From Escherichia coli (GTDB lineage Bacteria; Pseudomonadota; Gammaproteobacteria; Enterobacterales; Enterobacteriaceae), in assembly GCF_024502345.1 (NCBI RefSeq), contig NZ_JALDNN010000001.1: a stretch of DNA of 64,000 nucleotides. One strand, written 5' to 3'. The position numbers and the translations under genes were made by a program. Each line of letters begins with the position of its first letter. Position 1 is the stretch's first letter. This document shows, piece after piece, positions 33,465 through 37,160 of this stretch. The notes beneath the pieces were generated by a model. That model saw only the letters and a program-made list of their open reading frames with translations. It did not search any database and had not been told where the DNA came from.

Positions 33465-33709
33465 CCTTGATGCCTCACCAGTTGGGTGGAATGGCATCGT
33501 AACCTACTGGATAAATACTCAATAGTACCATTTCGGTATGCAATCACATCATGGTTGCATCATATCATCGTCTGGAGCAATGAAATGTCAGATATCACCG
33601 CAAATGTTGTGGTAAGCATGCCTTCGCAACTCTTCACTATGGCGCGTTCTTTTAAAGCGGTTGCCAATGGTAAAATTTATATCGGTAAAATTGACACTGA
33701 CCCGGTAAA

Positions 33710-33724
33710 TCCTGAAAACCAGAT
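33710..33724. repeat. 15 bp direct repeat (TCCTGAAAACCAGAT), left copy flanking the IS2-like element
   Basis: Identical to 35061-35075. Confidence 0.6.
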
Positions 33725-33761
33725 TGATCTTGACCCTCCATCTCCGAACAGCTTTTGTATC

Positions 33762-34643
33762 TTAAGTTAACGATGTCCGCTGCCGCCGGTATTCCCTCGG
33801 GGAGTGATATCCCAGCGCGCTGTGCGGGTGGTTTTCATTGTAATGCGTGAACGCTACTGCAAGGTTTCGCAGTGCTGTTCTCACATCCGGTTTTGGCATG
33901 AACGCGATATAGTCTTCTTTCATCGTTTTCACGAACCGTTCGGCCATGCCATTACTCTGCGGGCTGCTCACCGCTGTTGTGCAGGGCTCCAGATTCAGCT
34001 CTCTCGCGAACCTCCGCGTTTCATACGCGGTATACGCTGAACCGTTATCCGTCAGCCACTGCACCGCTGTGTCGGGCAACCTGTCGCCGAAGCGCTTTTC
34101 CACCGACCTCAGCATCACATCCTGCACGGTCGAACTGTCATAGCCTCCCGTGCTTGCTGCCCAGTCTATGGCCTCACGGTCGCAGCAGTCCAGCGCGAAC
34201 GTTACCCGCAGTTTTTCGCCGTTGTCGCAGCCGAACTCGAAGCCATCTGAACACCAGCGCATATCGCTTTCTGCCACCGCTATCTTGCCCTTATGTTCAC
34301 GCTTCGGTCGCTCTGGTTTGTGATGCAACAACAACAGGTTATGCTCGCTCATTATCCTGTAAAGCCGTTTGGCATTCACAGGTGGCTGTCCCTCTGTGCG
34401 ACGTTGCTTGCGCAGGATGCCCCACACGCGTCGATAACCATAACTCGGCATATCGCTGATAATGTTGAGGATAGCCGACAGTATTTCTGCGTCTGCTTCT
34501 TCATTACGCCGGTTACAGCGCCTGTCCTGCCAGTCGGCAGAACGGTTAATCCGCAGTGACAGTTGCGCACGCGACACGCCCATGGTCCGGCTGACCATGG
34601 CTATTCCCCGTCCTTTGGCAACAAGGGCGCGTGCGCTATCCAT
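33762..34643 (-). CDS. IS3-family transposase OrfB (InsD-like, DDE integrase core)
   Basis: 293 aa ORF recognised as InsD-like (…HSPREYRR… C-terminus). Confidence 0.8.
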
Positions 34644-34996
34644 TTTCGCGACTGACCGTACTCCACGGCTTCTTTCAGGATCTCAACTTCCATCGTTTTC
34701 TTGCCCAGAAGGCGCTGAAGCTCCCGGACCTGCTTCAGAGCAGCAGTAAGCTCAGAAGCAGGAACGACTTCCTCTCCAGCCGCAACGGCGGTGAGGCTGC
34801 CTTCCTGATATTGCTTCTTCCACTTAAACAGCAGGCTGGGCTGGATACCATGCAGGCGGGCGACATGGGAGACATTCATACCCGGCTCCATCGTCTGCTG
34901 GATAATGGCGATCTTCTCCTGAGGAGTTTTACGTTTACGGACTTCTTGCCCTAACAGGATCCCGGTCATCTCAAAATTGGCGTTAGTGTTAGACAT
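34601..34996 (-). CDS. IS3-family transposase OrfA (InsC-like, HTH)
   Basis: 131 aa ORF overlapping orfB by 43 nt in a different frame, as expected for a programmed -1 frameshift. Confidence 0.75.
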
Positions 34997-35060
34997 ATAT
35001 TCAAGCCTATCTCTTATCTGGAGATACAGCTACTGTCCGGTGTTTCAGGGGGCTACATCA

Positions 35061-35075
35061 TCCTGAAAACCAGAT
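35061..35075. repeat. 15 bp direct repeat (TCCTGAAAACCAGAT), right copy flanking the IS2-like element
   Basis: Identical to 33710-33724. Confidence 0.6.
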
Positions 35076-37160
35076 TCAGGTTTATGTGGAGAATGAGGAT
35101 GGTTCTCACGTTCCTGTTTCGCAGCCAATCATCATTAACGCCGCTGGTTATCCTGTATATAACGGACAGATTGCCAAGTTCGTAACTGTGCAAGGCCACT
35201 CTATGGCTGTTTATGATGCATATGGTGCGCAGCAGTTTTATTTCCCTAATGTGCTGAAATACGACCCTGATCAGTTAAGGAAGGAAATTACATCCACAGG
35301 GAAAGGAAAAGGTGCGGATATGATCCCCCTTCAGCAGGGTGGAACAGTTCAAAGTGCTATATATTATGTTACGCCATCATCGGCAGGAATAACTGGTGAT
35401 GGGACAGATGAAGGAGAAAAATTAATCTATTTGCTAAATAGATATGATGGGTATGTTATCGACCTGTCTGGAATGACAATTAAAACAAGCGAGATGATTA
35501 GTGTTGTTTTCAACAAAAAAACAACAATAAGAAATGGAACTATTATCTATACTGGAGCAGTAAGTCCATTTGTTTTAAAAATAACGTGCTCATCCGTTCT
35601 TTCCATAGAGGATATTGCCATTGACGGCAAGAACAATGCTGCAAAGCTACTCTATGCGCTTTCATCCGATAACAACGCAAAAATATCTATTTCAGGCTAT
35701 TCTGGAAGAAACGCTAGGGAAGCAATTGACACAGGATTATCAACTGCTGCATATATTACGGCAGGCTCATTGTTTAGATGGAAAGAGATTAGGCTGTCAG
35801 ATTCCTCAGCTTATGATATTTCAAGCTCAGGTGGTTCTAATGTTGGTCGCGGGTTTATGGTTCAAAACTTTGAATATTGCTATGTTAGGAATATTTCAGT
35901 ATTCCGAGTTGGACCATATCAGGATGCGGATGGGATATATGCATCATCCCCTAACTATTTATCAGCAGTATTTGATATTAGTGATTCGTATTTTGAAGAC
36001 TGCCAGAAGAGATCAGTCAAATCACAGATAATGAACTCTCGGGTGAGCAATATTGTAGAGCGGCGCACACAGGCCTTTGCTGTTGCTGCTGGGCAGTCAG
36101 CAGTAGACTTGCAGGCAGGAGGTTCTCTAGACGGACTTAGTTGCTTCTATGCTGACGGAGCAGCCCCACAGTCAATCGTTTCAGGTGGTCTTGTCAGTGG
36201 AGCACCGACATTTCGAGGTATTTCTTTGCGAAATATTGACGTCAACTGCGAAGATCCGTCAGATATTATCTCTCGTCTGGTATCATTTTATAATAACTCG
36301 CCGAATACATATGATGGTTACATTGCTGAAAATATAAAATGTAATGCCATAATAGAGAATGTTGGATTTCTGTATAGCAATACAGGAAACACAAATTTTA
36401 ATGTATATCTCTTCAAAGAGGTTATCTTCAGAAACATTCAGTCGTCAGGAATGGCAGGAACGGTGCCAACTGCTGTAATTCAAATAAGCAGAGGTTCCTC
36501 TGCGTATGTGAAGGCTATAGTACGGGTGCAAAACCTCAATCTTGGCGATGGAAATATCGCACCATTGTATTATCTTGACCCATTGCCAGGGGTTACAACT
36601 TTTCTTGATGTTTTATTTCGTCAAGTAAGTAATTGCAGAGGGTTTGATACGCTAACTAACGTAAATTCCGATACATCTCAACGCATCTATGCAGTAACTG
36701 CAGACGTAGCTGAAAATGAATCTACAACACTTTTAATACCAATAAAGACAACAAATGGAAAAACGGCAGTAAAAATATCTGTAATGTATAACTCAAACAG
36801 GGATGAGCATGCAGCAAAGCTATTCACAGAAGGATACTGGTTCTTCGGGTTATCATTGCCATATTATATAGAATCAGTCGCTGGAGTAAAAACACAAACA
36901 AACGTTGGATCTATCGTGGTCACAGTTGCTGAAAACAATTTAGTTGTAAAAAAAATCGCTGGAACCACCGCTGCAAGCGGGCGGATGACAGTGATTATTG
37001 AGCATATATCATGCGTGAATATGTAGGTTAATCTGATAAATTGGGAATGGATTGGTTGCAGAATGGCGCCCTCTGTGAGACATCTGCTGCATTAGGAGTG
37101 ATAACATACATCATCAACGATGCGATGTGAGTTTGATTATTGCACGGTTTATAGGTGGCG

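Follow-up and report, generated by a model that had tools for sequence, protein, structure and literature searches.

A P22-like tailspike gene in the 64,000-nt stretch of Escherichia coli DNA analysed here (hereafter the window) is interrupted by an insertion sequence lying between two exact copies of a 15-bp sequence. This arrangement very probably arose by a single transposition of ISEcl1 into the tailspike gene of a P22-like prophage that is now decayed, the 15-bp repeat being the usual duplication made by ISEcl1 and its sister element ISEc48. The locus itself is ordinary, consisting of a dead tailspike in a dead prophage and an IS that is common on plasmids and chromosomes; the notable part is the footprint of the element, which comes in two length modes. 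The features of the locus are collected in Table 1.

Table 1. Features of the interrupted tailspike locus (positions in the window)
Feature	Position	Strand	Basis
Arc/Mnt-like repressor gene, directly upstream of the tailspike gene; immI-type position as in P22-like phages	33198–33497	minus	
Tailspike 5′ fragment: start codon and codons 1–47, head-binding domain	33585–33724	plus	ORF reading; Pfam on the restored protein
Left copy of the 15-bp target-site duplication, TCCTGAAAACCAGAT	33710–33724		Exact repeat; single copy in the empty site
IS element taken as ISEcl1 (IS3 family, IS2 group), 1336 bp	33725–35060	minus	Full-length identical copies; profiles; published contexts
Right terminal inverted repeat (IS orientation), ends ...GGGTCAAGATCA-3′	33725–33766	minus	Extent approximate
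orfB, 293 aa, DDE/rve catalytic domain	33762–34643	minus	Overlaps orfA, −1 frame
orfA, 131 aa, helix-turn-helix protein	34601–34996	minus	IS2 TnpA model match
Left terminal inverted repeat (IS orientation), starts 5′-TGATGTAGCCCCC	35019–35060	minus	About 40 nt, extent approximate
Right copy of the 15-bp target-site duplication, TCCTGAAAACCAGAT	35061–35075		Exact repeat
Tailspike 3′ fragment: codons 48–696 and stop; rest of the head-binding domain and predicted beta-helix body	35076–37026	plus	ORF reading; homologues; model
Prophage integrase (IntS type), downstream of the tailspike gene	37161–38354	minus	
tRNA-Arg(CCT), integration site	38480–38554	minus	

The 15-bp repeat is a target-site duplication

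An initial annotation of this DNA had remarked on the exact 15-bp repeat that flanks the IS, and the repeat is indeed present as described, with a chance expectation of 0.08 matches to TCCTGAAAACCAGAT per window when up to two mismatches are allowed. Automated repeat finding makes it 17 nt long, since the T and the A at the tips of the IS extend the 15-mer by coincidence. Given that ambiguity at the boundary, one could imagine that most of the 15-mer belongs to the IS termini and that the true duplication is short, but we consider this next to inconceivable. More than 40 further copies of the element fix its ends, all of them starting with TGATGTAGCC and finishing with GTCAAGATCA, that is, at identical TGATG...GATCA termini, with unrelated flanks beyond. 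Moreover, an empty site exists: the uninterrupted allele of E. coli HCP6S3_I2 holds the 15-mer once, inside an intact 696-aa gene, where it encodes NPENQI (at the equivalent motif P22 gp9 presumably reads NPANQI). The 15-bp direct repeat is a genuine target-site duplication and lies outside the IS ends.

The junctions of the IS with the tailspike gene are clean, and the interruption falls at codon 47/48. As the initial annotation had proposed, the interval 33725–35075 is the correct unit to delete, but it is made up of the IS, which ends at 35060, and the right copy of the repeat. With the two tailspike fragments joined accordingly, an ORF of 2091 nt (696 codons) is read through without any internal stop; additional frameshifts were looked for in the restored frame and none was found. 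Left unrestored, translation of the tailspike gene enters the IS and stops at 33768–33770, for a product of 61 aa.

The element belongs to the IS2 group and is taken to be ISEcl1

The two ORFs of the element share 43 nt. Their offset of 353 nt puts orfB in the −1 frame with respect to orfA, and in RefSeq identical copies of the IS carry a joined CDS annotated with a programmed frameshift. The ends, TGATGTAG... and ...CAAGATCA, form imperfect inverted repeats with 5′-TG...CA-3′ tips (gapped alignment; the same ends in more than 40 copies). The NCBIfam model transpos_IS3 is matched at 199 bits, above its cut-off of 160, and a product identical to that of orfB has Pfam rve (PF00665) and rve_3 among its recorded domains. 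The IS2-specific NCBIfam models stay below their cut-offs (TnpB, 416.5 against 597; TnpA, 201 against 229). These scores identify an element of the IS2 group that is not IS2, which bears out the family placement made in the initial annotation. The duplication at this site, at 15 bp, lies outside the 3–5 bp expected of the IS3 family (5 bp for the IS2 group).

Copies of the element abound. In E. coli, 172 records align with the 1336-bp segment over 80% or more of its length; among the matches listed, 17 are 100% identical over the full 1336 bp and end exactly at the IS termini. Copies identical over the full length are carried by numerous E. coli chromosomes and plasmids. When genome contigs were scanned for exact matches to the 28 nt at the left end of the IS, a single locus came up, in Enterobacter asburiae and without a right end, and this locus was left out of the census described below.

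We take the element to be ISEcl1 itself, a name assigned from its length and from published contexts and not from an ISfinder alignment. Published ISEcl1 is a 1336-bp member of the IS3 family. Approximately 1500 matches on Klebsiella plasmids, 98.4–98.5% identical and flanked by IS1, correspond to the IS1X1-ISEcl1 module published for pKPN3-type IncFIB(K) plasmids, and the published ISEcl1 of the Pantoea plasmid pPATHpab likewise corresponds to one of our matches (H133). In a further published case an ISEcl1 insertion enlarged a plasmid from 51,479 to 52,830 bp; the authors report 14-bp DRs, and the enlargement amounts to 1351 bp, or 1336 + 15. Taken together, ISEcl1 and the element in the window share length, family, two overlapping ORFs and the plasmid contexts of the literature, and no difference was seen between them. 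The name ISEcl2 was also considered and set aside: it belongs to a fragment beside qnrS1, and nothing linked it to the element in the window.

Duplications of ISEcl1 and ISEc48 fall into two length classes

We scored the duplications at 45 distinct ISEcl1 sites, a convenience sample composed of the best BLAST hits together with places on the longest contigs. Duplications of 15 bp were found at 26 sites, of 16 bp at nine, of 14 bp at one, of 5 bp at six and of 4 bp at one, and two sites had none. Thus 36 of the 45 sites carry 14–16 bp, with a mode of 15 bp, none carries 6–13 bp, and seven carry 4–5 bp, so that the long duplication is dominant but not obligatory. Both length modes were seen for the same ISEcl1 variant and inside one genome (L052–L057), and the short duplications match beyond chance (P about 5e-16). 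The ten scorable sites of ISEc48 gave 15 bp five times, 16 bp three times, and 14 bp and 4 bp once each. Over the two elements, 14–16 bp is found at about 80% of sites and 4–5 bp at about 15%, and the mean lengths of the two modes are 15.22 and 4.86 bp. As a control, ten IS2 sites were scored with the same script: eight had 5 bp and two had none. One further 5-bp IS2 site was read by eye, and every scorable IS2 site has 5 bp.

Lengths were taken only from copies with scorable ends, to the exclusion of two more distant or truncated relatives (L036 and L037). A set of matches of about 70% identity, annotated as IS3 family transposase and considered as a third lineage, proved to be IS2 itself. 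A target consensus was sought in the 26 duplicated sequences of 15 bp and none was convincing; the same 26 sequences are mildly AT-rich at positions 2–8.

The length of the repeat had led the initial annotation to suggest that the insertion was atypical or that gene conversion followed it. On such a reading the 15-bp repeat would be a one-off aberration, or a short duplication of 3–5 bp that gene conversion or repair lengthened afterwards, and the 3–5 bp that are normal for the IS3 family, like the 5 bp at eight of the ten IS2 control sites, speak in its favour. The census overturns it. Unrelated sequences of 14–16 bp are duplicated at the 36 ISEcl1 sites and at nine of the ten scorable sites of ISEc48, an element only 77% identical, and a secondary event would not repeat one length at dozens of loci. 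The IS in the window is, in addition, 100% identical to active-looking copies elsewhere and its junctions are clean. We therefore regard a one-off or secondarily lengthened repeat as very unlikely. The long duplication is a habit of the ISEcl1/ISEc48 lineage: the insertion is typical for the element, and the element is atypical for its family.

A somewhat better case, though still an unlikely one, can be made for an origin of the long duplication in a host or repair step, in which one-ended strand transfer would be followed by a nick about 15 nt away and by gap filling, with the 5-bp class as the sole direct product of the transposase. Two discrete length classes could mean two pathways. Against this, the long class is narrow (14–16 bp, with 35 of 36 at 15 or 16 bp), and it is common to two elements of 77% OrfB identity in different hosts yet absent from IS2 in the same hosts, although a process driven by the host should affect IS2 too.

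The tailspike has a P22-like head-binding domain and a divergent body

In the restored protein, the Pfam Head_binding profile (PF09008) is covered in full by residues 1–113 (E = 5e-67). The N-domain of Sf6 gp14 in the PDB matches at 93% identity over 110 columns (E = 6e-65) and that of P22 gp9 with E of about 1e-50, in agreement with the P22-like N-terminus recognized in the initial annotation. Its other statement about the protein, that the body diverges from P22 gp9, is upheld as well. The body has no Pfam match, PDB sequence matches end at residue 118, and a tblastn search of 50,697 phage records returned nothing past residue 200 or so; homology to the P22 gp9 catalytic domain was not found for the body (residues ~120–696).

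In an AlphaFold model, residues ~140–690 are all-beta with a pLDDT of about 90, and the best PDB matches returned by Foldseek are phage beta-helix tailspikes, with P22 gp9, Sf6 gp14 and HK620 gp9 among them. The body is thus predicted to be a right-handed parallel beta-helix, and the intact tailspike would form a beta-helical trimer that binds or cleaves a glycan, presumably of an O-antigen. Six of the seven residues of a PYQDADG motif (residues 327–333) are invariant in 19 homologues; from this conservation we infer a candidate acidic active site. The tailspike shares its head-binding N-terminus, gene position and predicted body fold with P22 gp9, Sf6 gp14 and HK620 gp9, but their bodies show no detectable sequence similarity to that of the tailspike, and structural alignment gives about 10% identity.

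The closest proteins are WP_475694501.1, WP_060659378.1 and the rest of their cluster, intact and uncharacterised 696-aa E. coli proteins annotated as phage head-binding domain-containing protein. The cluster has 40 members, and every member with a named source is from E. coli. Relative to the HCP6S3_I2 allele, the body in the window is identical at the nucleotide level (100%), and apart from the IS the two copies differ at 26 nt, none of them beyond nt 264. Homologues of the body form 19 clusters among 5.8 billion proteins. The body is a rare receptor-binding module that is shuffled among different phage tail adaptors.

The prophage is a remnant

The tailspike gene has the arc/mnt region on one side and the integrase gene on the other, and the gene order is the same in the intact prophage of HCP6S3_I2. 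A 16-nt att core, GGAATCGAACCTGCAA, is found at 38494–38509 and again at 27378–27393, marking out a prophage remnant of 11.1 kb. Replication, lysis, packaging and head genes are missing from it, and an ORF at 31048–32193 is a fusion of a replication-O N-terminus with residues 98–435 of an ejection protein. With these genes lost there is no virion for the tailspike to join, and in an 11-kb remnant the gene is useless.

Could the tailspike nevertheless still work, or be switched on again? A 646-aa ORF, starting at a GTG at 35086, persists downstream of the IS and might be expressed, and loss of the IS alone, with both repeats kept, would leave the gene in frame with five extra residues. However, the 3′ ORF lacks the first 50 head-binding residues, the genes for a virion to which any product could attach are gone, and precise excision is not normal for IS3-family elements, which move by copy-out, paste-in transposition. 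A working or switchable tailspike is accordingly extremely unlikely. An exact protein look-up with the 646-aa product returned no identical record.

A model for the insertion and its two-mode footprint

In the single-transposition account, a P22-like prophage would have integrated at the argW tRNA-Arg gene and decayed to the 11-kb remnant. One ISEcl1 copy would have transposed into codon 47/48, in the orientation opposite to that of the tailspike gene, splitting the head-binding domain and leaving a pseudogene. Both IS ends would have been joined to target phosphates 15 bp apart, and filling of the gaps would then have produced the direct repeat.

The two length modes of the census differ by about 10.4 bp, roughly one turn of the DNA helix. 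These lengths suggest that the integration complex can engage one and the same face of its target DNA in either of two registers, which lie a helical turn from each other. It is a real possibility, to which we tentatively give somewhat less than even weight, that ISEcl1 and ISEc48 make up a sub-lineage of the IS2 group that joins its target in a register of either 4–5 or 15–16 bp, with the long one preferred by about 5:1. Our search of the open-access literature for 15-bp duplications by IS3-family elements or ISEcl1 turned up only the passing remark on 14-bp DRs mentioned above. A published table gives a DR of 5 bp for ISEcl1; this is apparently the typical value of its group, and it is unlike what the element mostly does.

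If the two-register reading is true and undescribed, these elements offer a system with two natural states in which to study how the stagger of the target is measured by a DDE transpososome. The occurrence of two separate staggers a helical turn from each other limits the possible geometries of the IS3-family integration complex; no solved target-bound structure of this complex is known to us. The way in which ISEcl1 and ISEc48 insertions in resistance plasmids are recognized and annotated would change as well. Annotators who look for repeats of 3–5 bp will misplace the boundaries of ISEcl1 or infer that there is no duplication, and the element is widespread on resistance plasmids of Klebsiella, Enterobacter and E. 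coli and is implicated in mcr-8 contexts.

Comparison with ISEc48 and IS2

ISEcl1 was first described in Enterobacter cloacae. Its nearest relative in our comparison, which NCBI annotation names ISEc48, likewise has 1336 bp and TG...CA ends, and its OrfA and OrfB are 88% and 77% identical to those of ISEcl1; the two are distinct elements at about 77% nucleotide identity. They have the same spectrum of duplication lengths: in ISEc48, 15/16 bp prevails and 4 bp is rare. The members of the IS3 family, IS2 included, normally duplicate 3–5 bp, and IS2, IS911 and IS3 are established to transpose by copy-out and paste-in by way of a circular intermediate. ISEcl1 is expected to share this pathway with IS2, which has the same gene layout, similar ends and inverted repeats, and an OrfB that is 61–63% identical. 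IS2 differs from ISEcl1 in its length of 1331 bp and in its duplications, which are of 5 bp as against the 14–16 bp found at 80% of ISEcl1 sites.

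The flanking 15-mer is a target duplication

The prophage tailspike gene is split into two fragments by a 1336-bp block, and the exact 15-bp repeat reported in the initial annotation, TCCTGAAAACCAGAT, is present and abuts the block on both sides. Shuffles of the window give an expectation of 0.08 chance matches to this 15-mer at two or fewer mismatches; the repeat search scored it as 17 nt, the block's terminal T and A extending the match by coincidence. Seventeen listed records are 100% identical to the block, with E. coli chromosomes and plasmids matched end to end, and about 2000 plasmids, mostly from Klebsiella, match it. 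Every fetched copy of the element starts with TGATGTAGCCCCC and ends with GGGTCAAGATCA, while the DNA outside varies between copies. Because the ends are fixed and the flanks copy-specific, the 15-mer does not belong to the IS termini; it is a true target duplication, present once in the uninterrupted allele described below.

Features of the interrupted locus and surrounding prophage
Feature	Position	Strand	Remarks
16-nt direct repeat GGAATCGAACCTGCAA, left copy	27378-27393
Two adjacent BstA ORFs (113 and 101 aa)	28701-29387	-	match N- and C-terminal parts of BstA abortive-infection protein profile
Chimeric ORF	31048-32193	+	replication-O N-terminus fused to part of ejection protein
Lytic transglycosylase ORF (151 aa)	32194-32649	+	matches positions 1-145 of 576-residue 'lytic tail fiber protein' profile
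Arc/Mnt-like repressor	33198-33497
Tailspike 5' fragment	33585 (ATG)-33724	+	from sequence reading and ORF list
15-mer, left copy	33710-33724
Inserted block (1336 bp)	33725-35060	-	two overlapping ORFs (131 and 293 aa)
15-mer, right copy	35061-35075
Tailspike 3' fragment	35076 to stop at 37024-37026	+	open frame
Integrase	37161-38354
tRNA-Arg(CCT)	38480-38554
16-nt direct repeat, right copy	38494-38509		within tRNA-Arg

The ORFs of the block pass the cut-off of the IS3-family transposase model and score below the cut-offs of the IS2 TnpA and TnpB models. Given these scores, an OrfB 63% identical to that of IS2, an orfB lying in frame -1 with respect to orfA, and TG...CA ends (with imperfect inverted repeats), we assign the element on sequence grounds to the IS2 group of the IS3 family, in line with its first description as IS2-family, as a member distinct from IS2 itself. 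RefSeq annotates a programmed frameshift in identical copies.

The name ISEcl1 is well supported, and was reached from length and published contexts rather than by alignment with the ISfinder reference. ISEcl1 has been published as an element of 1336 bp (PMC5001619). An IS1X1-ISEcl1 module is known from pKPN3-type IncFIB(K) plasmids (PMC7319535); its counterpart here is a set of roughly 1500 Klebsiella plasmid matches at about 98.4% identity, and in the copy inspected IS1 sequence flanks ISEcl1. Pantoea pPATHpab also carries the element (PMC10425158), with a counterpart among our nucleotide matches (H133). Finally, in one paper an ISEcl1 insertion takes a plasmid of 51,479 bp to 52,830 bp (PMC10913469), a gain of 1351 bp, or 1336 + 15, with flanks described there as '14-bp DRs'.

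Long duplications are the rule for ISEcl1

We gathered copies from BLAST matches and by looking up proteins identical to OrfA and OrfB, and took as the duplication the longest stretch of identical bases directly abutting the fixed IS ends on the two sides.

Duplication lengths at insertion sites
Element	Sites	Lengths
ISEcl1	45 distinct	15 bp x26, 16 x9, 14 x1, 5 x6, 4 x1, none x2
ISEc48	11 (one unscorable)	15 bp x5, 16 x3, 14 x1, 4 x1
IS2 (same script)	10	5 bp x8, none x2; one further site by eye, 5 bp

The 15 bp found in the window is the modal footprint of ISEcl1, and therefore the proposal of an atypical insertion or a later gene conversion falls. The repeat is indeed longer than the family norm, as had been remarked: the 3-5 bp duplication that defines the IS3 family is absent from 80% of ISEcl1 sites, whereas the control element IS2 gave 5 bp. 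No ISEcl1 duplication measured 6 to 13 bp; the long class averages 15.22 bp (n=36) and the short class 4.86 bp (n=7), a gap of 10.4 bp. The short matches are not due to chance (P about 5e-16). One and the same sequence variant can show both classes, and so can one genome, in which six copies (L052-L057) have duplications of 15, 16, 15, 15, 16 and 5 bp. Variants with identity as low as 92% (L033-L035) keep the long class, and it recurs in the sister element ISEc48, which is also 1336 bp long and shares ~77% nucleotide and 77% OrfB identity with ISEcl1. No two duplicated sequences at ISEcl1 sites are the same, and a search among them for a target consensus gave nothing convincing. Beyond one incidental remark on '14-bp DRs' (PMC10913469), the searchable literature yielded nothing on this long footprint, which ISfinder may record.

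Several copies lie in composite settings. One ISEc48 copy (L068, 194-1529) sits within an IS2 element, with a 14-bp duplication, CCTAAGACATCAAT. The very common pKPN3-type ISEcl1 copy of Klebsiella IncFIB plasmids (L029-L032) has no target duplication, interior IS1 sequence on its left, and a right end one base from the left end of an IS2, which suggests a rearrangement or an insertion beside the IS2 end. In orfA of several ISEcl1 copies from E. coli, Klebsiella plasmids and metagenome contigs (L021, L024; H1, H20, H22, H24, H103) lies a nested IS110-family element about 1166 bp long, which may represent site-specific IS-in-IS insertion.

A possible basis for two staggers

The IS3-family elements IS911, IS2 and IS3 move by copy-out, paste-in: one end attacks the other, giving a figure-eight and then a circle with abutted ends, after which the transposase cuts where the ends abut and links the two 3' ends to target phosphates that are staggered. 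Since gap repair then makes the duplication, its length equals the stagger. As a family member ISEcl1 would use the same pathway, and the observed outcome is two discrete staggers whose spacing nearly equals a B-DNA helical repeat. The ISEcl1 complex may thus reach scissile phosphates on one face of the target by spanning a single groove or by going a further turn along, and would favour the second option. Host repair is the less likely origin of the long class, given that IS2 lacks this class in the same hosts.

The restored gene encodes a predicted beta-helix tailspike

Among the complete E. coli genomes of the collection, the same tailspike body (99.4% identity) occurs only in HCP6S3_I2, where the gene is uninterrupted and holds a single copy of the 15-mer, coding NPENQI. 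Joined in silico, the two window fragments form a 2091-nt frame of 696 codons, free of internal stops and frameshifts. Neither outcome that would have refuted the initial annotation, IS termini taking in most of the 15-mer or further frameshifts in the restored ORF, was therefore seen. As it stands, the 5' fragment is predicted to yield a 61-aa peptide. Since the duplication (its two copies bounding 33710-35075) amounts to 15 bp, or 5 codons, losing just the IS would repeat PENQI in frame within the head-binding domain instead of shifting the frame. The restored product differs from the intact HCP6S3_I2 allele by 4 residues. All 26 nucleotide differences lie in the first 264 nt (33585-33848 versus 2876-3139 of L007, the HCP6S3_I2 locus) and the other 1827 nt are identical, which indicates a recombination breakpoint near the junction of head-binding domain and body.

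The P22-like N-terminus was borne out by a full Head_binding domain (PF09008, residues 1-113, E=5e-67), for which Sf6 gp14 is the nearest match (E=6e-65, 93% identical across 110 columns), followed by P22 gp9. Equally, the body is unlike P22 gp9, with no Pfam or PDB sequence match beyond residue ~120 and no tblastn match beyond residue ~200 among 50,697 phage records. A search of 5.8 billion proteins returned only 19 clusters for the body: the E. coli protein itself, identical in sequence, accounts for one (40 members, all source-named ones from E. coli), and the others are 30-63% identical with varied N-terminal adaptors. These adaptors (PF18668, the T7 tail-fibre N-terminus PF03906, Calx-beta PF03160 and P22 head-binding PF09008, in P0002-P0019) point to a receptor-binding module that has been shuffled among phage tail types.

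An AlphaFold model built on 19 homologue sequences is confident and all-beta over residues ~140-690 (pLDDT about 90). Every one of its best PDB structural matches is a phage tailspike or depolymerase of the parallel beta-helix type (Sf6, P22, HK620, Acinetobacter phages, LKA1 and Phi92), at about 10% identity. The tailspike has a well-known architecture, of which it is an uncharacterised example. We infer only a candidate active site in the motif PYQDADG (residues 327-333), six of whose seven residues are invariant across the 19 homologues. The proposed difference in glycan specificity from P22 is reasonable given the unmatched body.

The insertion lies in a decaying prophage

The order of repressor, tailspike, integrase, tRNA-Arg(CCT) and yfdC is that of intact P22-like prophages at argW. 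The window prophage is a remnant, bounded by copies of the likely att core GGAATCGAACCTGCAA merely 11.1 kb apart. The chimeric ORF resembles lambda-O-like replication initiators at their N-terminus over its residues 1-35, and a P22-type ejection protein (positions 98-435) over its residues 34-375. This fusion marks a deletion reaching from replication to tail hub, in which the genes for replication, lysis, packaging and the head were lost. The apparently split BstA gene is probably a pseudogene, and the transglycosylase tail protein looks truncated. The ISEcl1 insertion adds a further lesion to this decaying prophage. A named IS has disrupted a prophage gene in the ordinary way; what departs from the textbook is the ISEcl1 footprint, a trait of the IS lineage and not of the insertion in the window.
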